In this document: piece after piece, positions 1,807-63,857 of the stretch
Layout of the letters: every line of letters begins with the position of its first letter
Numbering within the stretch: the first letter of the stretch is position 1
Origin: Escherichia coli
GTDB lineage: Bacteria > Pseudomonadota > Gammaproteobacteria > Enterobacterales > Enterobacteriaceae
Direction: 5' to 3' (one strand)
DNA length: 64,000 nt
Assembly (NCBI RefSeq): GCF_024223415.1
Contig: NZ_CP100500.1
Program-made: the position numbers and the translations under genes
The notes under the pieces: model-generated
Seen by the model: only the letters and a program-made list of their open reading frames with translations
What the model was told of the DNA's origin: nothing
Database searches by the model: none

Positions 1807-3389
1807 TGTGAAAATATTAAATTTATATTACATTTTAATTATCGACAAAAAACACATAAAGAAATCTAAAGGGAATGAGCGTCAAATGAGCTGATATAGC
1901 GCCAGTTTGGTATGGTCATGTGATTTGATGATTAAAGCTTACGGATAATAACACTCCTCTGTGAGCCATATAAATGAGCATGCCATAATCGTCAGTTCAG
2001 AGATAAAACTGACTGAATGATCTTATGTTATAGTAAGCAGTGTTTACCGGATACGATGACTTATCTCTCTCACATCATATGGATTCACTTTCATGGGGTA
2101 AAGCGATGGGACTACAGACGCTGATTATGATGGTTTGCTGTAAAGTTAGCACAAGTTTTTGCTGTACAGAATACGGAGTAAGAAAAATAATTCCAGAGTA
2201 AATCTGCTCTGCTTTTGAACAGAAAAGATTCATGCTTACCGTGAAAAACTGAAACCAACATTCAGTCTGCATGGATGTCTTAAGATGTTGAGAATGTCGG
2301 ATATGGTATTATATACACCTTTTCCATTAGGTCCTTTTATGTTTTCATTAAGTCGTTTTGTATGTATTCCTCCAGTGATTCATTAGTGCCTGTTTACGCA
2401 TTTACACACTTTTCCCATTAATCTCCTTTAAATGTGTTTCATTACGCATTGCTGTACACATTTTTGAACTGATACACATCCAAGTTAGTAAACCTGTCAG
2501 TTCTGATTTTACGTTAACTAAATCAGTTTAATGCTGCTGTAAAACAATCCTTCCTGTTTAAGCAATCAATCTGCTATTCGATTTTACTGATGTGACGTTT
2601 AACCTTTCCTGAGCTTTGGTTGTTTGTGGTTTTTGGTTTGTGTTTCGACGTTAAGCTGAGAAAAGTATCTTTACGCTAAATCAACCCGAACTTTCCTGAG
2701 GTGATCTGACGTTCTTTTCGATGTGCTTACGACGATTCTGTTAAACGACTTTCTGGATGTTTTGATAACAATCAGATTGAGGCATTAACGATTCCTGACG
2801 TTTTGCTTTTTCATGTAAGGTCATTGTTTTCGTCATGATGTGGTTTTTCTTCTTGCATTGCGAAAGTGTGATGATTGGTTTTGGTTTTTTGATTCAGATG
2901 AGATTTACGTTATCGATGGTTAATCGTTTTTATGGTGAGTAGTGAAACGTAACATTTTCGGGATGAGAAAATCGATTCTGATGGTGATGGGGATGATCGT
3001 GTTACGGCGTTATCTGTAAACAGGTTTTAAACGTGTCATTCGCATTCGTGATTGAGTTGTGTGATTAAGCTGTAGGTTTTGGCGTTGTTGTTGATTTGCA
3101 TTGCCAGGAAGCGTTCTGGTTGCGTTTCTGGTGTTTTGTTCGAATGTTCTGTGGATCCTTTTCCCTTCAGGCTTTTCTCGTCGTCCATGTCGTTTTTAAA
3201 TCCATTCATGCTGTTGTTGCGTGTTTTGCTGCTGTGTGCAGGATTATCTTTTCGTTCCGGGATGGTTTGTTCCGTTTCAATCACTCTTAATCAGAGAGTT
3301 GTAGCATTGCTTAATGACATGATGCCGTAAAGTTTTACCGCGGTGATTAATGATGTGAAGTCAATCCAAATCAACGGAGATCTCTCATC

Positions 3390-36839: not shown

Positions 36840-38062
36840 ATGTCGCAACCCTTACTGAAAGTAACCGACCTGGCAAAAAGCTTTTCCGGCGTATGGGCGC
36901 TGAGCAGCGCCCAGCTCACCGTCGGCACGGGTGAAATTCACGCTTTGCTGGGCGAAAACGGCGCTGGGAAATCCACGCTGTTGAAGGCACTCGCGGGCGC
37001 ACAGCCACAAACGCGCGGGGAGATCTGGTTCAATGGCGAAACGCTGCCGGTGGACGACTCCCCGGTAGAACGGCAGAACAAGGGCATTATCACCATCTAT
37101 CAGGAATTCAACCTGCTGCCCAATATGACCGTTGCGGAAAACATGTTTCTCGGACGCGAACCGCGTAAACGTAACCTGATCGTCGACGAAAAAGCGGTCA
37201 ATCAGGAAGCGCAGGTGATTCTCGATTATCTGCAGCTGAATGTCGCACCCACCACGCCAGTCGCCCGTCTGAGCGTGGCCCAGCAGCAGATGGTGGAGAT
37301 TGCCCGGGCGCTGACCCTCAATGCCAGGCTGATCATCATGGATGAACCCTCCGCCGCCCTGAGTGACAGCGAGGTGGAAAGCCTGCACCGCGTGGTGCGG
37401 GAGCTTAAAAACCGCGGCGTGAGCATTATTTACGTTACTCACCGTCTGCATGAAGTTTTCCAGCTTTGCGATCGTTTCACCGTTTTCCAGGATGGCCGTT
37501 TCACCGGCACCGGCGCAGTGACGGAGACGAACGTAGAGCAGTTGATCCGCCTGATGGTAGGGCGTGATGTGGCCTTTAACCGCCGCCCTGCCAGCGAAAC
37601 CCACCATGAAGACAAACCTGTCCGTTTGTCGGTGAAGGGGTTAAGCCGGGAAAAACCGCCGCTGGATCCACACGGCATCGCCCTGCATGACATCAGTTTT
37701 CACGTCCATGCAGGGGAAGTTCTGGGTATCGCTGGGCTGGTGGGGGCTGGTCGTACTGAGGTAGCGCGCTGCCTGTTTGGCGCCGACGCCTTTACCACCG
37801 GCAGCTTTGAGCTGGACGGCGTGCCGTACCAGCCGCGTGACCCACTTTATGCGCTGGAGCAAGGGCTGGCGCTGGTGCCGGAAGATCGCAAAAAAGAGGG
37901 GGCGGTGCTGGGTCTGTCGATTCGCGACAACCTGTCGCTCTCCTGCCTCTCCTCGCTGTTGCAGTGGCGCTGGTTTGTGAATACCCGCAAAGAGGACGAC
38001 CTGATTGAGTCCTACCGCCAGGCGCTGCAGATCAAAATGGTCAACAGCACGCAAGAGGTGCG
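36840..38062 (+). pseudogene. sugar ABC transporter ATP-binding protein (two-domain, RbsA-like), 3'-truncated by Mu-like prophage insertion
   Basis: First ABC domain complete (GENGAGKST…LSVAQQQMVEIARAL…IIMDEPSAAL); second domain stops after …QIKMVNSTQEV, before the expected LSGGNQQK signature; sequence from about 38063 is phage end. Confidence 0.75.
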
Positions 38063-38110
38063 TGATGCGCCGCGCGATAAATGCGCTCTATCTTGTGCGA
38101 TAAATGACAA
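38063..38110. repeat. Mu-type prophage end: terminal TG followed by two CGATAAATG-containing repeats (putative transposase-binding sites)
   Basis: tgatgcgccgcgcgataaatgcgctctatcttgtgcgataaatgaca; resembles recalled Mu attR terminus TGAAGCGGCGCACGAAAAACGCG and R-site core CGATAAATGCG. Confidence 0.5.
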
Positions 38111-38140
38111 CCAATCGGCGTTTCATTATTTGAAAAAGAA

Positions 38141-38520
38141 TTACATTTCAGGTTGCGTTATGACTGTCCCAGCGGGGTGATAGCGGTAGATCGTTGACAG
38201 TCCAATATCATAGATAATTACCAGCCGCTTTCTGTCATACCCTTTCTGGAGCAATCTTGCGATCTGCTCATGCTGCTCCTTCGTCAGTTTCGGGCGACGC
38301 CCTCCAACTCTCCCTTGTGCTCGCGCAGCAGTCAGTCCTGCCAGCGTGCGCTCAACTATCAGTTCACGTTCCATTTCTGCCAGTGCACCCATCATATGAA
38401 AAAAAGAACCTTCCCATCGGAGTGCTGGTATCGATTAAATCCGTCAGACTGCGAAAATTGACACCTTTTGCGCGTAGCTCTTCTGTGAGCGAAATGAGGT
38501 GTTTCATTCTTCTACCCAAC
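38141..38520 (-). pseudogene. Gin/Pin/Hin-family serine DNA invertase, N-terminally truncated and frameshifted
   Basis: …LISLTEELRAKGVNFRSLTDLIDTSTPMGRFFF then frame slips at A7 tract (38389-38395), continuing …MMGALAEMERELIVERTLAGLTAARAQGRVGGRRPKLT…; catalytic N-terminal about 60 aa missing. Confidence 0.7.
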
Positions 38521-38815
38521 CGTTACAGCTTCCAGACCACCAATGTATCCCCTCTTTTAAGGCACCTTAAAGCGCGTTTCAGGCCTGGTCGTTGCGACTT
38601 AGTTCCGCTCATTTGTCCTCAAAAATTTGTTCACATCCTGCGCACATTAATACATTGCGTTTTGGTCATTTGTTGACACACGTATGTAGCCAATCAGCAT
38701 CAAAAACACTCCCTTTTGAGTGGTTAAAGTAGTGAGATAATGTGGGGAAGATTTGAGAGATAACCCGCCCCCGCAATATCGCATTTAACTATATTGTGAG
38801 GGCGCGTGATACCGT

Positions 38816-39430
38816 TCAGCCAGCAAGCGCCAGTGGCGCTTCCGGCCAGCTGATTTCAGGTGCCTTGCTGATATCCAGTGCGTTCAGATCGTCGATATAA
38901 TCCAGCACGGCATTCAGTTTTGCCGTTTCTTCTGGTGTCAGACTGCGACCTGCCCGCAACTTAAGGTTGATGAGGTCGATGGACTTCATCGCCTGATCCA
39001 CCCGTTCCTGGCGTTGCTGTCTGGCAACCTCCAGCTCTTCGGCTTGCTGCCGTTCTGTATCGGTTACCCACGCCTCACCGTTCCAGGTATCCCATGGTGT
39101 GGCAGGCTGTTTTGTCGTTGTCCCTTCCGGGTAGTCACCTGGTTGGGTAATCTGGACCGGATTACCGTTCTCTGTGCTGTATACCGTCTCTCCACGATGA
39201 TCGGGGACATACTCCCACCCGTCCAGCGTGGACGTCCGGCAAATCACGTAACCCGGCATTGCCTCTGGCGGGGCATCGGCGCATGAATGTGCCGGGGTAC
39301 CCACCCCCAGGGCCAGATACTCCACAGAGGATGAGGTGTATTCCCGGGTTTCCTCATCATAGTGATATACAGTGATATCGCCTGCGAAAGTGGCGATACC
39401 GTTTTCATCCAGAACTGCAGTGTTACTCAT
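38816..39430 (-). CDS. phage tail fiber assembly protein (Tfa, Mu U-like)
   Basis: 204 aa immediately downstream of tail fiber gene with ATGA-type overlap; typical Tfa position. Confidence 0.7.
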   Translation of the reverse strand: MSNTAVLDENGIATFAGDITVYHYDEETREYTSSSVEYLALGVGTPAHSCADAPPEAMPGYVICRTSTLDGWEYVPDHRGETVYSTENGNPVQITQPGDYPEGTTTKQPATPWDTWNGEAWVTDTERQQAEELEVARQQRQERVDQAMKSIDLINLKLRAGRSLTPEETAKLNAVLDYIDDLNALDISKAPEISWPEAPLALAG

Positions 39431-41274
39431 TAAACTGCCCTCACAATATAATTAAAAGCGATATTGCGCGGTCTGATCGCTATCCATCTGTCTTTTTCAT
39501 TACTCACCAGCTTACCGGCTCTGGCTATTGCCCATCTGTCAACTGGTTTTGTGCCGTACAGGATGCCGTTACCGGTTCTGGGTTGATCAGGGGTTATGTT
39601 TATGATGTCGTTATCATGTGATGCAAATGAAATCCCTGCCTGAATATCTGCACCTCCCGCTACGCCGTGGTACGCCTGTATGGAGGTACAAATATATGTT
39701 GCTTCCTGTGTGGATAACAATAAGCGTCCCCTGTCAATCATTCGCAGGTCATCCCATCCACGAATAAATTCCCCGCGCAAATCTGGTAGCCTGAGGTCAG
39801 GGTAGGCCACCGCCAGTTTTGGGTATTTTGTACGCGTGAATGCGGCACCGTTGCACTGTAACCACCCCTCAGGTGGTCTTGACGAAGGCCACGGAACGGG
39901 TACGCCAACTGGCAGCGTCGAGCCTTCTCCTAAACCAAGGTAATCAAGAATATCTTTTATGCTTTGTTTACCCATGATGACGCGGGCAACAGACGAAAAA
40001 ACAGGGGCGTCTGTGATCTGAGCCCAGCGATGAGTGTGGGCTGCCGAGGCTTTGCTGTTGGCAAGGTCATACGCAGCTTTAACAGCTTTTGGTGTGGCCG
40101 CCAGCATTTCGGAATTGCTGTTTGTGGCGCTGCTTAGCTGTACGATGCCTTTGCGTCCGGTGGTTGCATCCTGTCCTGTATACTTGCTCGTCAGCATATC
40201 GTGTAAGGCTTTAACCGCTTTGGGGGTGGCGGCCTCAGTCTCTGACTCACTGTTTGTGGCACTGCTCAGCTGTACGGTGCCTTTTGCCGTCAGCGAGGCT
40301 GATGGCACACCTGTTATCTGATTCCACGGGTGGGTGTGGCTGGCGGGTGCTTTACCGGCTGCAAGGTCATATGCAGCCTTGACGGCTTTTGGTGTGGCCG
40401 CCAGCGTTTCGGAATTGCTGTTTGTGGCGCTGCTCAGCTGTACGATGCCTTTGCGTCCGGTGGTTGCATCCTGTCCTGTATACTTGCTCGTCACCATATC
40501 GTGTAAGGCTTTAACCGCTTTGGGGGTGGCGGCCTCAGTCTCTGACTCACTGTTTGTGGCACTGCTCAGCTGTACGGTGCCTTTTGCCGTCAGCGAGGCT
40601 GATGGCACACCTGTTATCTGATTCCACGGGTGGGTGTGGCTGGCGGGTGCTTTACCGGCTGCAAGGTCATATGCAGCCTTGACGGCTTTTGGTGTGGCCG
40701 CCAGCGTTTCGGAATTGCTGTTTGTGGCGCTGCTCAGCTGTACGATGCCTTTGCGTCCGGTGGTTGCATCCTGTCCTGTATACTTGCTCGTCACCATATC
40801 GTGTAAGGCTTTAACCGCTTTGGGGGTGGCGGCCTCAGTCTCTGACTCACTGTTTGTGGCACTGCTCAGCTGTACGGTGCCTTTTGCCGTCAGCGAGGCT
40901 GATGGCACACCTGTTATCTGATTCCACGGGTGGGTGTGGCTGGCGGGTGCTTTACCGGCTGCAAGGTCATATGCAGCCTTGACGGCCTTCGGTGTGGCGG
41001 CCAGTGTTTCAGAAGTGCTGTTTGTGGCGCTGCTCAGTTGGGTGAATCCTTTTTCTGTCAGTGTCGCGTCAGGGTGGTTACGGGAACGTGCGTGTTCAGC
41101 CAGTGACTGTGCGACTTCCTCCGTTTTCTTCTTCAGCCATTTCGTCCTGTTTGCCAGTTGCCGGGGGGCTCGATTTGATATCCCGTCTGCACCACCCAGA
41201 ACCGGATCTGATGTCTCCAGTTGATAGATATTTTCTTCCCACTTTTCTGTTTCATTCAGGTTTCCCATAATCAA
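39430..41274 (-). CDS. phage tail fiber protein (Mu S-like) with internal 100-aa tandem repeats and C-terminal tail-collar-like domain
   Basis: 614 aa; repeated block …GTVQLSSATNSESETEAATPKAVKA…; C-terminal …PDLRGEFIRGWDD… collar-like motif. Confidence 0.8.
   Translation of the reverse strand: MIMGNLNETEKWEENIYQLETSDPVLGGADGISNRAPRQLANRTKWLKKKTEEVAQSLAEHARSRNHPDATLTEKGFTQLSSATNSTSETLAATPKAVKAAYDLAAGKAPASHTHPWNQITGVPSASLTAKGTVQLSSATNSESETEAATPKAVKALHDMVTSKYTGQDATTGRKGIVQLSSATNSNSETLAATPKAVKAAYDLAAGKAPASHTHPWNQITGVPSASLTAKGTVQLSSATNSESETEAATPKAVKALHDMVTSKYTGQDATTGRKGIVQLSSATNSNSETLAATPKAVKAAYDLAAGKAPASHTHPWNQITGVPSASLTAKGTVQLSSATNSESETEAATPKAVKALHDMLTSKYTGQDATTGRKGIVQLSSATNSNSEMLAATPKAVKAAYDLANSKASAAHTHRWAQITDAPVFSSVARVIMGKQSIKDILDYLGLGEGSTLPVGVPVPWPSSRPPEGWLQCNGAAFTRTKYPKLAVAYPDLRLPDLRGEFIRGWDDLRMIDRGRLLLSTQEATYICTSIQAYHGVAGGADIQAGISFASHDNDIINITPDQPRTGNGILYGTKPVDRWAIARAGKLVSNEKDRWIAIRPRNIAFNYIVRAV
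40021..41045. repeat. 300-bp tandem repeat, about 3.4 copies, inside tail fiber gene
   Basis: Rows 40321-40620 and 40621-40920 are identical as read; 40021-40320 near-identical; plus-strand shadow ORFs recur at 300-bp spacing (40034, 40334, 40634, 40934). Confidence 0.85.
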
Positions 41275-41849
41275 CTTCTCCCGTGGTTATAACTGCCATC
41301 ATGGATGGCGGTATTGTTATAGCGAATGGCCACAGACTGATACTCCAGGCTGGCCAGATGGCAGCGGGCCGGTGCAAATGCAGTGAGCGTCTGACGCAGC
41401 ATCGCGGCCTGATCGTTAGTAATGGGCTGTTTCAGAATAACGCGATAAACCGCCCAGCCTGCTGTATCTCCATGAACAAACAGTCCGTTATGGCTGCGAT
41501 TGCCGTCGTAACTGAGACGACCTGTGCCTTCAATCAGATCCACTTCACCAAAGCCAAAACGGCGGATAACTTCCCGGATTGACCACGGCGTCCCTTTATA
41601 CCGGTGCAGTTCGATGGCTGCTTTTATAAGCATGCGGCGAACATCGTCCGATTCCGCCAGCTCCCAGCCATCGCCAGACAGTGAGAACTGCTCGCCCAGC
41701 CATGGCAGCGCGGAACTGTCGACGATATCGACGAGAAAGACCATCAGTACGCTCAGGTCGATGTTATCCAGCCGTCCTGCCAGTCTTCCCAGCGTCCTGA
41801 GACTGATATCACCCTCAAGCGGTGGCGGGAGTTGTAATGGCTCAGTCAT
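41271..41849 (-). CDS. phage tail protein I-like (Mu gp48-like)
   Basis: 192 aa between baseplate J-like gene and tail fiber, conserved synteny. Confidence 0.65.
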   Translation of the reverse strand: MTEPLQLPPPLEGDISLRTLGRLAGRLDNIDLSVLMVFLVDIVDSSALPWLGEQFSLSGDGWELAESDDVRRMLIKAAIELHRYKGTPWSIREVIRRFGFGEVDLIEGTGRLSYDGNRSHNGLFVHGDTAGWAVYRVILKQPITNDQAAMLRQTLTAFAPARCHLASLEYQSVAIRYNNTAIHDGSYNHGRS

Positions 41850-60265: not shown

Positions 60266-60816
60266 GAGATCACCCCGTAAATCTGTTCCCGCACCATCTT
60301 CAGGGTTTCCAGACTCAGGCGGGTGTCGCCGGACTTCGCCTGTTTTTCCAGAGCATTCATCCGTGCCTCAATTTTTGCCAGCACCTCGGCCCGGAATCGC
60401 TTGTGGGTCACCGAAGCACGGACAAGAGTGGCTATGCTTTCCGAAGCAGTGGCCAGCAGTTTTGCGCGTTTTGCAGGATCATCACTTTCTCCGATTTCCT
60501 GCAGACGCATCAGAACATCCAGCATCTCGGTCTGAATCAATGCCATCATCCCGGCAGAACGATCGTCCGCCTCGTCACCGGCTTCCTGCGCCATCAGACG
60601 CGCGGCCTCGGTGGCGGCGCGGATGCGGGCCAGTTGTCGCTCCATTTTGTACCCGAACCGCTGCAGGGAGGAACGGGTGATGACGTATCCCTTCTCCTTC
60701 AGCAGGGCTTCCAGCCGGGCGTAGCCGCTGAAGTTATTCTCCGTCAGGGCTCGCTCCAGCCAGCGGCTCACCTCTGTCGGGAGGGTATCAATGCTGCTGC
60801 GACGTCCCATAATCAC
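60262..60816 (-). CDS. terminase small subunit-like protein (Mu gp27-like, DUF3486)
   Basis: 184 aa immediately upstream of large terminase. Confidence 0.6.
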   Translation of the reverse strand: MIMGRRSSIDTLPTEVSRWLERALTENNFSGYARLEALLKEKGYVITRSSLQRFGYKMERQLARIRAATEAARLMAQEAGDEADDRSAGMMALIQTEMLDVLMRLQEIGESDDPAKRAKLLATASESIATLVRASVTHKRFRAEVLAKIEARMNALEKQAKSGDTRLSLETLKMVREQIYGVIS

Positions 60817-61124
60817 TCACTCCAGTACTTTTCCGGGCGGGCAATACCCGGGCCGCATTCCACGGTGTATTCCACAATATCCACACCAAGGCGACTCAGA
60901 TCGGCAAACCAGTCACCGGAAGGTCTCTTCTCCAGCTCCACCATTTTGCGATCTGCCAGATAATCAAGCTCCCGGCGCAGCTCCAGTTGCGTGGTGTCCG
61001 GGTAGATGGCGCGGGACACTTCCAGCAGCAACGTCTCGCTGGCGGTGTAAGGGCGGGTTTTGTTAAGGGCAACCAGCAGACTCCAGCGCAGGGATTCACG
61101 GCGTACCCGGGTAATATCGACCAT
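60813..61124 (-). CDS. hypothetical phage protein (Mu gp26 position)
   Basis: 103 aa, co-oriented, overlapping stops/starts. Confidence 0.45.
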   Translation of the reverse strand: MVDITRVRRESLRWSLLVALNKTRPYTASETLLLEVSRAIYPDTTQLELRRELDYLADRKMVELEKRPSGDWFADLSRLGVDIVEYTVECGPGIARPEKYWSE

Positions 61125-61450
61125 TATTGACCTCCGGTATTGCGGTACTGCTGTACCACTTCCAGTTTGTTGTAAAGCGCGTCCAGTTTGGCCTCGATGA
61201 CTGTCTGGCCACGGATATAATCCTCGCGACGGACATAATTCAGCGGTAAATCCGCTTTAAATCGCATCAATTCTTTTTCCAGCTCGCCCCAACTGGAGGC
61301 GGACTGCTGCAGTGACTGCTCAAGAGAGGCAAAACGTGCAGCCTGACGTTCCTCCGCTTTACTGAACAGCCATTTGGCCATACCGCCAACAAAGCTCATG
61401 AAGGTGATGAGAAAGCCCACCACCGTCCAGAATTCAACCTGCAGTGTCAT
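61124..61450 (-). CDS. membrane-anchored phage protein (DUF2730-like)
   Basis: N-terminal TM segment FWTVVGFLITFMSFVGG, coiled-coil C-terminus. Confidence 0.5.
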   Translation of the reverse strand: MTLQVEFWTVVGFLITFMSFVGGMAKWLFSKAEERQAARFASLEQSLQQSASSWGELEKELMRFKADLPLNYVRREDYIRGQTVIEAKLDALYNKLEVVQQYRNTGGQ

Positions 61451-62100
61451 TTATGTAATCCTTCCCGTTCATCCAGCAACGCGTTTATCTGGTTCCGCCA
61501 GCGACGACATTGTCCTGCGTTGTCGATGATGTTGGCGAGAACGTCACGCTGGGAGACACCCGAATCGCGTAACCGGGTATCAGCGGTTTCAGGTTGCCCG
61601 GTCGCTGCGCCAGTGCCGGTGCCAGCGGTGGCAGTTGCGTCTGAATGACCGGTGTCGACGGATGCGTTGTCATATCCGAGTGCGGCGTTGTACTGGCGCA
61701 CGAAACCGCGAGTAAACACGCACTCAATGGGATGGCTCTTACCTTTTTCATCAATCCAGCGCTGTGTGACATCGTTAATTTGCCCCTGTAGTTGTTTGTT
61801 CCGGCTCTCCAGTTGAGCAATCTGCTCAAGGTAACTGGCTTCAGCCCGTTGCCCGGCGGCTACCTGCTCCTGATACCGTTTTGCCCATGCTCGCAATGCA
61901 GCGTTCTCAAGCATTGCCTGCTCCGTTTTGTATGTGTCGAATGCTGACTGCAACTCACTGATCGCCTTATCGCCGTTGCGCGTGGCGTTTTCATGCCCGC
62001 TTTTGTAGCCCAGGTAATAAAGTCCAATCAGAAAAGCATTTATGAGCACTGCCAGCAGCAGACTGCGCCACGGCAGATTTTTTAGCAGGTTAGTCCACAC
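61447..62100 (-). CDS. i-spanin (Rz-like)
   Basis: N-terminal TM LLLAVLINAFLIGLYYLGY, coiled-coil periplasmic domain, downstream of endolysin. Confidence 0.6.
   Translation of the reverse strand: MWTNLLKNLPWRSLLLAVLINAFLIGLYYLGYKSGHENATRNGDKAISELQSAFDTYKTEQAMLENAALRAWAKRYQEQVAAGQRAEASYLEQIAQLESRNKQLQGQINDVTQRWIDEKGKSHPIECVFTRGFVRQYNAALGYDNASVDTGHSDATATAGTGTGAATGQPETADTRLRDSGVSQRDVLANIIDNAGQCRRWRNQINALLDEREGLHK
61485..61751 (-). CDS. o-spanin (Rz1-like lipoprotein) embedded in alternate frame of the i-spanin gene
   Basis: MKKVRAIPLSACLLAVSCAST… lipobox (LAVSC) followed by Pro-rich segment, entirely inside Rz-like gene. Confidence 0.5.
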   Translation of the reverse strand: MKKVRAIPLSACLLAVSCASTTPHSDMTTHPSTPVIQTQLPPLAPALAQRPGNLKPLIPGYAIRVSPSVTFSPTSSTTQDNVVAGGTR

Positions 62101-62704
62101 AGCTGCCGCCCCCCCATGTCAGATAACGGGGGGCCAGTTCGTGCAGGATGCGCTGCGGATAATGACGGTTCTCCCGCCAGCTGGCAGCATTGCGTCCGGC
62201 ATTCACCGTGGCGACATGTCCGAACCAGCGCTGACTGTCCAGCCCCAGATTTGCGGCGAGCCGCTGGTCACGACGCACCCAGCCCGGGCCACCGTTATAG
62301 CCCGACAGTGTCATGGCCATACGCTCGCAGTCACTGGCGGCGCTGATGCGCTGCCACAGCCAGCGGTCATAGCTGACCAGCGCCCGGATGGCCCATGCCG
62401 GATTAAACGGCTCACGACTGCTCAGCGCCGGCATCAACTGGCTTATCCAGTCAGCGGTGGCGGGCATAAACTGCGCCAGCCCCTGAGCGCCCACCGGCGA
62501 GACCGCATCAGGCCGCCAGCCGCTTTCCTGATGCAGTTGCGCGGCGAAATCGGCCACCGGCGCAGACAGCCCCCATTCAAGCCGGGCATTACGGATCACA
62601 TCATCGCGATACTGCAGCGCAGCCTGCGGAGGCTGCGCTGCGCGGGCCTGACTGAAGAAGCCGCCACACCAGAGCAACATTGCGACAAAGAATACCCATG
62701 CCAT
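62090..62704 (-). CDS. endolysin, lytic transglycosylase (SLT domain) with N-terminal signal-anchor
   Basis: …ESGWRPDAVSPVGAQGLAQFMPATADW… SLT catalytic motif; hydrophobic N-terminus MAWVFFVAMLLWCGGFF. Confidence 0.75.
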   Translation of the reverse strand: MAWVFFVAMLLWCGGFFSQARAAQPPQAALQYRDDVIRNARLEWGLSAPVADFAAQLHQESGWRPDAVSPVGAQGLAQFMPATADWISQLMPALSSREPFNPAWAIRALVSYDRWLWQRISAASDCERMAMTLSGYNGGPGWVRRDQRLAANLGLDSQRWFGHVATVNAGRNAASWRENRHYPQRILHELAPRYLTWGGGSCVD

Positions 62705-62826
62705 ATGAACCAGAAAGGTCCCGACACGGACTGACAGGCGTTCGGTTCTGATGAAGACCAGAAAGGCTTCGAAAGCCAGTTTCAGGGACATGCATACAAT
62801 CCAGGTGCTCTGTGGCCAGTTCATGA

Positions 62827-63177
62827 TTAAAGCCCCATCGCAACAGCCAGACAGACAGCTGCAACAATCAGTGCACGGCGGATTAACGCAGCAGAAAAAA
62901 CCAGGTGAAGGCCGGTCTGTACGGGCCAGCGCCCCTCAGCCATGAGGCGCTCGTCATGCTTCAGGTACTGCCCCGGACGGGCCTTCGGGAAGAGTGAGCG
63001 GTCCAGCCAGTAGCCGAGCACGGCGGCGAGGGAGATGAGAGAGAGCTTGTACACCACCACCGGCAACTGCTGGGGCGAGACCAGCGCGATGATGAGGAGT
63101 AGCAGCACGGCCGCAACAAGCCATCCACGCAGGCGGGTTTTTTGTACGTCAGCGATAAGGGAAGTGAATGGTTTCAT
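62827..63177 (-). CDS. holin-like membrane protein
   Basis: 116 aa, hydrophobic TM segments, immediately upstream of endolysin. Confidence 0.5.
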   Translation of the reverse strand: MKPFTSLIADVQKTRLRGWLVAAVLLLLIIALVSPQQLPVVVYKLSLISLAAVLGYWLDRSLFPKARPGQYLKHDERLMAEGRWPVQTGLHLVFSAALIRRALIVAAVCLAVAMGL

Positions 63178-63308
63178 GAAAATGTCTCCTTGTTGTGTGG
63201 AGACAGCATGGCAAAAGCGTGGCGCGGAGGATTTTAAAGCGCGTTAAGAGAGAGGCGTGTTCGGGGTATGCAGAATACACGCTGGATCACTCACAAAGGA
63301 GATACAGA

Positions 63309-63857
63309 ATGACAGTCACACCGAAGCCGACCATCACCGTCAGAGTGTCCGGGCCTGTGGGCAGCGGTAAAAGTTACGTTCTGACGCGTATAAAAGAGAT
63401 GGTGAAAAAGGAATTTGGAAAAAGCGTCATTGTCGATGCCGCAGTTGTGGACGACGAGCGTATCTGTCGGACGAATGAGCTGCTTCAGGAGCAACTCATG
63501 AAGGTGTTACGCAAACTCACCGGTCAGACAACAAAATGTTTTTCAGCCCCGGAGTACGGGATACAGGAACACATCCCGGTGAACATGCCCCCCGTTAACC
63601 AGCCTCCCCGGTTCTTCGACGAATACATTCTGACACCGGAAAATAAAGCTGAGCATGAAGAGATCAAAGCGGCGTTGTTCCGGGAAATCAGGAAGATTGC
63701 TGAAATGCAGCTGGAGGGCGGGCTGGACAGAGTGATGGCGAGAGGAGAATGGGAATCGCTGTTTGAAAGAGTTTCCCCGGAATTGCTTCCCCTCGCACTG
63801 GCTATCGGGATTATGCAGACAGCGGATAAACCTCACTTACGTTCATTAAACACGTAA
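63309..63857 (+). CDS. hypothetical P-loop protein (GPVGSGKS), oriented opposite to phage late genes
   Basis: 182 aa from ATG 63309 with AAGGAG RBS; Walker A-like VSGPVGSGKSYVL; no Walker B obvious. Confidence 0.5.
   Translation: MTVTPKPTITVRVSGPVGSGKSYVLTRIKEMVKKEFGKSVIVDAAVVDDERICRTNELLQEQLMKVLRKLTGQTTKCFSAPEYGIQEHIPVNMPPVNQPPRFFDEYILTPENKAEHEEIKAALFREIRKIAEMQLEGGLDRVMARGEWESLFERVSPELLPLALAIGIMQTADKPHLRSLNT

Follow-up and report, generated by a model that had tools for sequence, protein, structure and literature searches.

The i-spanin gene located at positions 61447..62100 of the window and a lipoprotein ORF embedded in it very probably encode, as judged from sequence comparisons, a two-component spanin; the pair is carried by a transposable (Mu-type) E. 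coli prophage related to the phages BcepMu and B3. The window, i.e. the whole stretch of 64,000 nucleotides that was analysed, belongs to an E. coli chromosome and cuts the prophage, whose length is about 37 kb and which looks largely intact. The genes for lysis, packaging, head and tail are all intact, and NZ_CP158426 also encodes the transposase, its ATPase partner, Gam and Mor, the activator. The full genome further shows a frameshift in an invertase-like recombinase gene and, at the tail-fibre end, a fragment of YadA-C. Near relatives have been deposited as phages (PhiKM, the KP12 clone and Phi06_2974 B), and DNA related to the cassette was detected in 637 of 5426 complete genomes. A promoter scan of positions 60700-63500 revealed no sigma-70-like site, so that expression of the cassette would depend on phage activators; the terminator-like hairpins of this region are weak, intragenic and uninformative.

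The i-spanin gene was recovered exactly as claimed in the earlier note. It is encoded on the minus strand, is given in the ORF list with a GTG start and corresponds to a protein of 217 amino acids that matches phrog_1403, annotated as "Rz-like spanin", over its full length (PHROG profile search, E 3e-88). With Pfam at E <= 0.01, only a weak sub-threshold match to OmpH was obtained. The hydropathy profile displays a single N-terminal transmembrane segment comprised approximately between residues 13 and 31 (19-residue window from residue 13, mean Kyte-Doolittle value 2.03), flanked on its N-terminal side by Lys7 and Arg12; according to the positive-inside rule, the bulk of the protein would be located in the periplasm. 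In the AlphaFold2 model, a continuous helix (residues 11-119) is followed by a non-helical or disordered stretch (141-173) and by a second helix (184-215); the pLDDT is of 72-85 for residues 11-100 and below 50 past residue 122, the model being weak beyond residue 120. Hydropathy and AlphaFold2 together indicate one N-terminal transmembrane segment and helical segments joined by a linker, which are the features of an i-spanin. The linker (about 141-173) is rich in Gly, Thr and Ala and is the most variable stretch in the i-spanin frame. The conserved motif PIECVFTRGFVRQYNAALG is situated between the long helix (which extends to about residue 119) and this linker, and two cysteines, Cys127 and Cys198, are predicted to be periplasmic.

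The o-spanin gene (61485..61772, minus strand) is wholly included in the i-spanin gene, in the +1 frame. The ORF ends at 61485, 38 nucleotides ahead of the i-spanin stop codon, and three candidate starts are present, TTG 61829, ATG 61772 (MSHSAGLMKK...) and ATG 61751 (MKKVRAIPLSACLLAVSC...). The protein would have either 95 amino acids, from ATG 61772, or 88, from ATG 61751. The shorter form spans nucleotides 350-615 of the 654 of the i-spanin gene, i.e. 0.53-0.94 L (with ATG 61772 as start, 0.50 L), while embedded o-spanins typically begin at 0.4-0.5 L and finish at 0.9-1 L (PMC6139136). The predicted signal is MKKVRAIPLSACLLAVS|C followed by AS, with the lipobox L-A-V-S-C; the cysteine predicted to be lipidated is Cys18 of the 88-residue form, and the residue at +2 is Ala and not Asp. 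The SPII cleavage is predicted here by a pattern rule of the PROSITE PS51257 style, which the 88-residue protein satisfies and which is satisfied by no other embedded ORF of the i-spanin gene. At position -3, the lipobox has Ala (AVSC), a residue conserved in the family and allowed by the PROSITE rule, but AVSC falls outside the narrow consensus [LVI][ASTVI][GAS]C (PMC6139136). The mature protein would contain 71 residues, of which 11 are Pro (15.5%; 10 within the first 50) and 19 are Ser or Thr, with no periplasmic Cys; its conserved core is LPPLAPALAQRPGNLKPLIPGY, and the last 21 residues or so are poorly constrained. The Pro-rich ORF with the lipobox LAVSC, wholly inside the i-spanin gene and in another frame, is thus confirmed as it had been described. 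The lack of a lipobox, or a lack of conservation of the embedded ORF, had been named beforehand as what would speak against this assignment; the box passes the pattern rule and is kept in all 85 full-length related loci.

No family model was matched by the o-spanin in Pfam, PHROGs or NCBIfam. A tblastn search against phages returned three close relatives only, and the search of a large protein database yielded just 6 matching proteins. Consequently, the homology with BcepMu, B3 and JBD25 was shown by direct translation of the embedded frames. The o-spanin is not annotated in RefSeq for the source genome, and no o-spanin appears in the product names of related E. coli genomes among the matches listed. 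The annotations of two deposited phages wrongly name the i-spanin "putative lipoprotein".

BcepMu/phiE255 and B3/JBD25/JBD18/JBD67 both figure as families of embedded two-component spanins in the curated 2018 survey (PMC6139136), so that the comparison with curated spanins that had been advised agrees with the assignment. Genes 21-28 of the Burkholderia phage BcepMu (holin, SLT endolysin, Rz/Rz1, gp25, gp26, gp27 TerS and TerL) have their counterparts in the same order in the E. coli prophage, genes 21-25 being the BcepMu lysis cassette, with identities of 58% for the holin (gp21), 62.5% for the endolysin (gp22), 46% for gp25 and 57% for gp26. The spanins of BcepMu are strongly diverged from the E. 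coli pair: gp23 displays 27% identity with the i-spanin (pairwise E 1e-14), and gp24, annotated as "Rz1, out of frame, embedded proline-rich protein", displays 36% identity with the o-spanin over 75 amino acids (pairwise E 7e-12). The core ...LPP.L..RP....PLIPGYA is common to the two o-spanins. In BcepMu, a periplasmic Cys is found in the o-spanin and the second Cys of the i-spanin is absent, whereas in the E. coli prophage the i-spanin has two and the o-spanin none. Compensation between the cysteines of the two proteins across the family was considered and is not claimed, the counts giving no clean covariation. ORF27 of B3 shares 31% identity with the i-spanin (pairwise E 9e-21); for this protein and gp0028 of JBD25, the full-length identities are of 29-31%, and the motifs CVFTRGW/FVR, SGV..D.LA and QLN.LL are common to all. 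B3 and JBD25 also carry, embedded in the +1 frame, a lipobox ORF whose core is similar. These phages differ from the E. coli prophage in that they are Pseudomonas siphoviruses with an additional small gene between the endolysin and the spanin.

The open +1 frame in this single sequence is statistically unremarkable: when the i-spanin gene is reshuffled synonymously, the +1 frame is as open or more open in 18% of the reshuffles, and an ORF with a lipoprotein signal arises in 2%. The length of the alternative frame was therefore dropped as evidence, and the case rests on comparative data. In 43 of 43 distinct related genes, the 88-codon +1 ORF is kept with its ATG, both Cys codons and the stop context invariant. 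The o-spanin stop of these genes overlies an invariant ATA codon (Ile) of the i-spanin; ATA is a rare codon in E. coli. In the i-spanin codons 141-183, the diversity peaks at position 1, which is the wobble position of the o-spanin, and is lowest at positions 2 and 3, whereas outside these codons position 3 is the most diverse (Fisher p=1.2e-4 for the flip). Under neutrality of the +1 frame, the probability that at least 139 substitutions introduce no stop into it would be, by a rough estimate, about 0.01. Each of the 85 full-length related loci, whose i-spanin identities range over 40-100%, has the +1 lipobox ORF, as have B3, JBD25 and BcepMu, and the motif LPPLxPxLAxRPxxLxPLxPGY is common to all these embedded ORFs. 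In the 23 loci with 40-73% identity and in B3, JBD25 and BcepMu (about 30%), the ORF is localized at 0.48-0.56 L. The frames are not kept open automatically, since one decaying copy (L062) contains stops in both the i-spanin and the endolysin. The comparative evidence for purifying selection on the embedded frame is thus strong. The constraint is divided along the gene: the part that encodes the o-spanin signal, where the i-spanin motif CVFTRGFVR is also encoded, is constrained in both frames; in the part that encodes the i-spanin linker, the o-spanin frame is dominant; and in that of the C-terminal helix, the i-spanin frame is dominant, the o-spanin tail being a passenger.

These data bear directly on the possibility that the embedded ORF arises from the amino-acid composition of the i-spanin as a by-product and yields no functional protein, the 217-residue protein acting alone or with a partner in the outer membrane encoded elsewhere. 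An open +1 frame is indeed common among synonymous reshuffles, the ORF is almost never called by gene callers (six database proteins, absent from RefSeq) and it is covered by no family model. However, a by-product accounts poorly for start, Cys and stop codons that are invariant at constant length in 43 distinct genes, for a wobble pattern that tracks the embedded frame across 43 codons, for a homologous lipobox ORF that persists down to 30% i-spanin identity and for the stops of the decaying copy L062, and we regard this explanation as extremely improbable. It is also very unlikely that Cys12 of the 88-residue form, the first cysteine (LSAC), is lipidated instead of Cys18, which would give a mature protein six residues longer. 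Although LSAC matches the narrow lipobox consensus better than AVSC (PMC6139136), and although Cys12 becomes residue 19, at an acceptable distance, when the protein starts at ATG 61772, the hydrophobic core ahead of it is merely AIPL(S)A. Moreover, all relatives keep the second Cys, the first position is occupied by Tyr in one locus (L086), and B3 and JBD25 carry the distal Cys box only.

Another reading accepts the genuine spanin pair and supposes that the cassette is no longer used, in a prophage that is cryptic or non-inducible. The truncation of the prophage by the window, the frameshifted recombinase, the YadA-C fragment and the lack of a sigma-70-like promoter in 60700-63500 are in its favour, but the integrity of the lysis, packaging, head and tail genes, the transposase, ATPase partner, Gam and Mor of NZ_CP158426, the near relatives deposited as phages and the purifying selection evident on both spanin frames make it unlikely. 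Intact reading frames in a largely intact prophage suggest that the capacity for lysis has been retained by the prophage.

The label "Rz/Rz1-type" holds for the architecture and the presumed mechanism, and by sequence the pair falls outside the lambda Rz/Rz1 Pfam families: neither the i-spanin nor the o-spanin matched, at E <= 0.01, PF03245 and PF06085, which we take to be the Pfam models for lambda Rz and Rz1. The relatives in sequence are gp23/gp24 of BcepMu and ORF27 of B3. As in lambda, the pair consists of an inner-membrane protein of type II, whose two helical regions are joined by a linker, and of a Pro-rich lipoprotein of the outer membrane encoded in the +1 frame, the constrained core of the o-spanin is encoded over the i-spanin linker and the i-spanin has periplasmic Cys (PMC6139136). 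The mature o-spanin of lambda is, however, of 40 residues compared to 71 here, and the o-spanin of the E. coli prophage has neither a periplasmic Cys nor a penta-proline run. In Mu, the lysis module of this transposable phage is likewise located right before gp26, gp27 and TerL, and the spanins follow a membrane-targeted endolysin, but there is no holin and the endolysin is a muramidase of the SAR type (PMC9239132). The similarity between Mu gp23 and the i-spanin is marginal (32% over 66 amino acids, pairwise E=0.01).

The holin and the endolysin are encoded directly upstream of the spanins, on the same strand and with overlapping stop and start codons. The holin-like gene that had been reported upstream was verified: it is located at 62827..63177 (minus strand), encodes 116 amino acids with three hydrophobic peaks in the hydropathy profile, and matches PF13272 (Holin_2-3, 1.7e-41) and phrog_1528 (8.7e-51). 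The endolysin gene (62090..62824, minus strand), whose ATG overlaps the holin stop (ATGA), encodes 244 amino acids and matches phrog_669 (1.5e-67). The SLT lytic transglycosylase domain that had been recognised is present at about residues 97-192 (PF01464, 4e-15), but the N-terminus appears to be more than the simple signal anchor proposed at the same time. It contains two hydrophobic segments (approximately residues 7-25 and 34-57, mean Kyte-Doolittle values 1.86 and 1.99), the second of which ends with CGGFF and is followed by SQARA|AQPP, an A-x-A motif of the signal peptidase I type. SAR endolysins have a single, weakly hydrophobic, Gly/Ala-rich anchor that stays uncleaved; for the present enzyme, both release and cleavage would be compatible with the sequence. 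An inner start at Met41, which would leave a single signal as in BcepMu, was rejected: most relatives lack this Met, and the 40 upstream codons are kept as hydrophobic coding sequence. The B3 endolysin also displays a two-segment N-terminus ending with GGFF and A-x-A, whereas that of BcepMu has a single, short, signal-like N-terminus and JBD25 encodes the two-helix module in a gene apart, of 52 amino acids, the SLT enzyme having its own signal. The N-terminal two-helix module of the E. coli prophage endolysin is a match to phrog_5479, fused to the SLT domain; the free-standing module of the JBD25-like phages is the phrog_5479 membrane protein of 52 amino acids.

All components of the complete holin-endolysin-spanin cassette announced in the earlier note are therefore found, but the cassette includes at least one further conserved membrane protein, encoded in the gp25 slot. 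The corresponding gene (61124..61450, minus strand; 108 amino acids; phrog_462, 6.6e-35) directly follows the spanins with an ATGA overlap and is the second gene after the endolysin. Its product shares 46% identity with BcepMu gp25 and 40% with ORF28 of B3. The gene holds the position of the DUF2730 releasin in Mu and JBD25, the post-spanin gene of JBD25 being, unlike the present one, a DUF2730 member (PF10805). Releasins are recognised by an N-terminal transmembrane segment, a charged remainder of the coiled-coil type and a location within five genes downstream of the endolysin (PMC9239132). The gp25-slot protein has this architecture and position, with an N-terminal transmembrane segment (19-residue window from residue 7) followed by a charged, helical-type remainder that would be cytoplasmic. 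Its identification as a DUF2730 releasin is nevertheless not supported, since it does not match PF10805 even at E <= 10, whereas Mu gp25 scores 2.5e-13, and since hhalign with a profile of 7 gp25-slot sequences gave probabilities of 0.4% with Mu gp25 and 2.4% with the PF10805 protein of JBD25; it is a positional and architectural analogue only. We propose tentatively, as a possibility of rather low probability, that the cassette is more than a plain holin/endolysin/spanin set and that the two-helix module and the gp25-slot protein act on the release of the endolysin. If so, this widespread family of E. coli prophages would place a membrane-tethered transglycosylase under two controls, that of the holin and a second one that is releasin-like or based on a hairpin, and the gp25-slot protein would represent an unrecognised releasin family.

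Rz and Rz1 of lambda are the established model for spanin action. In the present pair, the i-spanin would be anchored in the inner membrane by its single N-terminal helix, with a mostly helical periplasmic part, and the o-spanin would be exported, would receive its lipid on the Cys of ...LLAVS|C and, with Ala at +2, would be sorted to the outer membrane. By analogy with lambda, the two proteins would bind through their periplasmic ends, forming a bridge that runs through the meshwork of the cell wall. After degradation of the wall by the SLT endolysin, the freed bridges would fuse or disrupt the outer membrane and so complete lysis. The analysis shows the anatomy of the genes, their families, their synteny and the purifying selection on the embedded frame, from which we infer that the o-spanin is lipidated, that the complex forms and disrupts the membrane, and that the prophage expresses the pair.

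The knowledge of spanins in general is unchanged, embedded pairs having already been described for the relatives BcepMu and B3. The main value of the finding concerns annotation, the embedded gene completing the lysis module. The alignment of the family also illustrates how constraints are shared out between two overlapping genes, and the completed lysis module is an argument for regarding this Mu-type E. coli prophage as potentially lytic.

The gene at 61447-62100 on the minus strand opens with a GTG codon and encodes the i-spanin, a protein of 217 amino acids. Its +1 frame is open over 124 codons and contains the o-spanin ORF, whose stop at 61485 is located 38 nt ahead of the end of the i-spanin gene; the embedded spanin described in the earlier note, a lipoprotein ORF lying wholly inside the i-spanin gene in another frame, is thus confirmed. 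Two in-frame ATG codons, 7 codons apart, at 61772 (MSHSAGLMKK...) and 61751 (MKKVRAIPLSACLLAVSCASTT...), define precursors of 95 and 88 amino acids, respectively. The 88-aa form agrees with a lipoprotein rule in the style of PROSITE PS51257 (a Lys or Arg within the first 7 residues and six uncharged positions before the box), with the box L-A-V-S-C and its Cys at position 18. No other alternative-frame ORF of the i-spanin gene agrees with this rule. The mature protein contains 71 residues, including 11 Pro (10 in the first 50) and 19 Ser/Thr, so that the lipobox LAVSC and the proline-rich character first read from the sequence are both recovered. The sorting of a lipoprotein is set by the residue after the lipidated Cys (+2 rule); since an Ala directly follows the lipobox Cys, outer-membrane sorting would follow.

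Taken by itself, the sequence of the window does not clearly place the embedded ORF beyond chance: among 5000 synonymous redraws of the i-spanin gene, the +1 frame was at least as open in 18%, and an ORF with a lipoprotein signal was created in 2%. The deciding evidence is comparative. A sample of 58 loci from viral contigs containing the i-spanin protein, together with PhiKM, KP12 and Phi06, gave a comparison set of 43 distinct genes (i-spanin identity of 68-100%). The 88-codon +1 ORF is present in all 43, without any variation in the o-spanin ATG, the two Cys codons or the stop context CAGATAAAC. This stop rests on an ATA Ile codon of the i-spanin frame, a codon that is rare in E. coli. Outside the overlap, the i-spanin codon positions show the usual pattern of diversity, with position 3 highest. 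In codons 141-183, the nucleotide diversity is 0.18-0.21 at position 1, 0.03-0.07 at position 2 and 0.04-0.10 at position 3; since position 1 of the i-spanin codons corresponds to the wobble position in the embedded frame, the latter is the more constrained in this region. The position contrast in minimum substitution counts is 110/177 vs 44/24 (Fisher p=1.2e-4). Codons 117-140, which encode the o-spanin signal and lipobox as well as the i-spanin motif DEKGKSHPIECVFTRGFVRQYNAA, are almost frozen in both frames. In codons 184-205 the i-spanin frame is dominant, and drift affects the last 21 residues of the o-spanin (mean identity to the window o-spanin of 72%, vs 92% for residues 1-67). Finally, a +1 stop would result from about 3.3% of the point changes possible in the overlap, and at least 139 substitution events include none, an outcome with a rough probability of ~0.01 if the embedded frame were neutral. 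One related locus (L062, IMGVR_UViG_2898975184_000011, 2501-3154) is a decaying copy, with in-frame stops in the endolysin (HSF*W) and in the i-spanin (CRI*RS), where the embedded o-spanin frame is still open.

A second scan with an i-spanin alignment recovered 23 further loci (40-73% identity). In each of them, an ORF embedded in the +1 frame begins 0.48-0.56 of the way along the gene, runs for 67-93 codons and has the common sequence ...CLL[VAL][AV]SC[SA].TTP and the core LPPLxPxLAxRPxxLxPLxPGY. The embedded lipobox ORF, whose conservation the earlier note had taken as a test, is kept in 85/85 full-length loci, the one listed exception being a truncated contig. The phages B3, JBD25 and BcepMu (~30% i-spanin identity to the window) also possess +1 lipobox ORFs with the same core. 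BcepMu gp24, annotated as "Rz1, out of frame, embedded proline-rich protein", shares 36% identity with the window o-spanin over 75 residues (pairwise E 7e-12). The window cassette matches BcepMu genes 21-28 in order and in proteins, with identities of 58% for the holin, 62.5% for the endolysin, 27% for the i-spanin, 36% for the o-spanin, 46% for gp25 and 57% for gp26. Among curated spanins, (BcepMu, phiE255) and (B3, JBD25, JBD18, JBD67) are listed as embedded two-component families in a 2018 survey (PMC6139136), so this kind of spanin, and even the wider family, has already been described.

Both o-spanin ATGs are invariant among close relatives and each is absent from some distant ones. The downstream Met is absent from six related loci (L076-L079, L091 and L092) and the upstream Met from two (L075 and L077), so that in the window either 61772 or 61751 could be the start. 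Conservation is broader for the upstream Met, and the invariant nucleotide stretch of the family starts precisely at its ATG; both starts may be in use. In another relative, L086, the first signal Cys is replaced by a Tyr and the second is retained, a pattern that points to the second Cys (Cys18 in the window) as the probable lipidation site.

The i-spanin matches PHROG 1403 ("Rz-like spanin") over its full length (3e-88). It has a single hydrophobic segment near the N-terminus, with K7 and R12 ahead of it, and Cys residues at 127 and 198. The AlphaFold2 model, based on an input alignment of 15 sequences, displays a continuous helix from 11 to 119 (pLDDT 72-85 to about residue 100) and, at low confidence past residue 120, a non-helical region (141-173) and a helix (184-215). 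This plan (membrane anchor, helix, linker, helix) is that of lambda Rz. Another trait common to the window and lambda is that the DNA for the i-spanin linker also encodes the constrained part of the o-spanin (PMC6139136). The Pfam search found no sequence relationship with lambda Rz/Rz1, the only i-spanin match being a sub-threshold OmpH; the term "Rz/Rz1-type" used at first therefore holds for the architecture and the presumed mechanism, but not for the sequence. The i-spanin has two periplasmic Cys, and the o-spanin lacks them. In the survey, 124 of 526 o-spanins have no periplasmic Cys, and the o-spanin Cys is less needed as the i-spanin Cys count goes from 0 to 2 (PMC6139136).

As proposed from the sequence, the spanin pair is preceded on the same strand by a holin (62827-63177, minus strand; PF13272, 1.7e-41), with three hydrophobic peaks, and directly by an SLT-domain endolysin (62090-62824, minus strand; PF01464, 4e-15; phrog_669, 1.5e-67). 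The N-terminus of the latter, initially called signal-anchor-like, is indeed hydrophobic but does not read as a simple signal anchor: it contains two hydrophobic segments (residues ~7-25 and ~34-57), the second ending in CGGFF and followed by the signal-peptidase-I-type motif SQARA|AQPP. The endolysin may be released, cleaved or gated by the holin. In most relatives there is no inner Met, and codons 1-40 remain hydrophobic coding sequence; translation thus starts at the ATG overlapping the holin stop, and the inner Met was ruled out. The N-terminal module (62650-62824, minus strand; first ~58 codons) matches phrog_5479, a free-standing two-helix protein of 52-53 aa and of unknown function, over the whole length in relatives (3.9e-15) and weakly in the window (7.6e-4, over the GGFF end). 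JBD25 encodes this type of module in a gene of its own, placed between the holin and an SLT enzyme with its own signal; in the window and in B3 the module and the SLT enzyme form one in-frame fusion. Within the E. coli clade the module occurs in three variants of very different sequence, that of the window being the most divergent.

Downstream, the gene 61124-61450 (minus strand), in ATGA overlap with the i-spanin stop, encodes a membrane/coiled-coil protein of 108 aa whose N-terminal TMD is followed by a charged, helical part. This homologue of BcepMu gp25 (46%) and B3 ORF28 (40%) lies at the position taken in Mu by the gp25 releasin (PMC9239132). The JBD25 gene at this position is a DUF2730 member; hmmscan and hhalign detected no DUF2730 similarity, either for the window protein or for the homologues in BcepMu and B3. 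The family is labelled "lipoprotein" in PHROG 462; the window protein has no Cys, and no lipobox was noted. It is followed by a gp26 homologue, a Mu gp27-type small terminase and the large terminase. Divergent from the holin, the gene 63195-63857 on the plus strand (63309-63857 in RefSeq) matches phrog_3787 (unknown function; 1.2e-88) and, weakly and below threshold, P-loop/AAA domains. No sigma-70-like promoter was found in the 131-bp gap between the gene 63309-63857 and the holin start.

The window is E. coli chromosomal DNA, and its lysis region is part of a Mu-type transposable prophage, with its late genes on the minus strand, that extends in the full genome roughly over record positions 4539500-4576700 (window ~37400 to past the right end). 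The prophage contains a DDE transposase, its ATPase partner, Gam, Mor, a terminase and a full head and tail gene set. Its only pseudogenes are two that RefSeq marks at the tail-fibre end: the first (37900-38280) is a fragment of a YadA C-terminal domain, the second (38355-38926) a gene of the recombinase family that is disrupted by a frameshift and probably represents a Gin-type invertase. A tandem repeat (40061-41037; 300-bp unit, 3.3 copies, 98% matching) lies inside the tail-fibre gene (WP_192459778, minus strand, ~40092-41723) and therefore corresponds to a repeat of 100 amino acids. The region 61000-63300 is 100% identical in NZ_CP158426 (strain NRZ14408) and NZ_LT599825. Among 5426 complete E. 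coli genomes, 637 contain cassette-related DNA, in most cases with 80-90% identity. The nearest deposited phages are Escherichia phage PhiKM (classed as Bcepmuvirus), a Klebsiella phage KP12 clone and Phi06_2974 B. RefSeq annotates the i-spanin as "hypothetical protein" and leaves the o-spanin out of the E. coli annotation; inside the matched region, the name "MreC domain-containing protein" appears in one RefSeq record. PhiKM and KP12 have the i-spanin as a "putative lipoprotein" (loci L002, 3199-3849, and L003, 3134-3787).

Anatomy, family, synteny and selection are shown by the analysis and support the interpretation of the pair as a spanin, the steps of its action following the established lambda paradigm. 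By analogy, the i-spanin would reside in the inner membrane, and the o-spanin would be lipidated and then sorted to the outer membrane, both joining across the periplasm. Once the wall is degraded by the SLT enzyme, the spanin complexes would disrupt the outer membrane via fusion with the inner membrane, as summarised for lambda (PMC6139136). From the intact frames and the apparently largely intact prophage, it is reasonable to infer that the prophage retains lysis capacity, as had been suggested. The E. coli clade is a new, unannotated addition to a spanin family that is already known, and its lysis cassette is of a known type as well.
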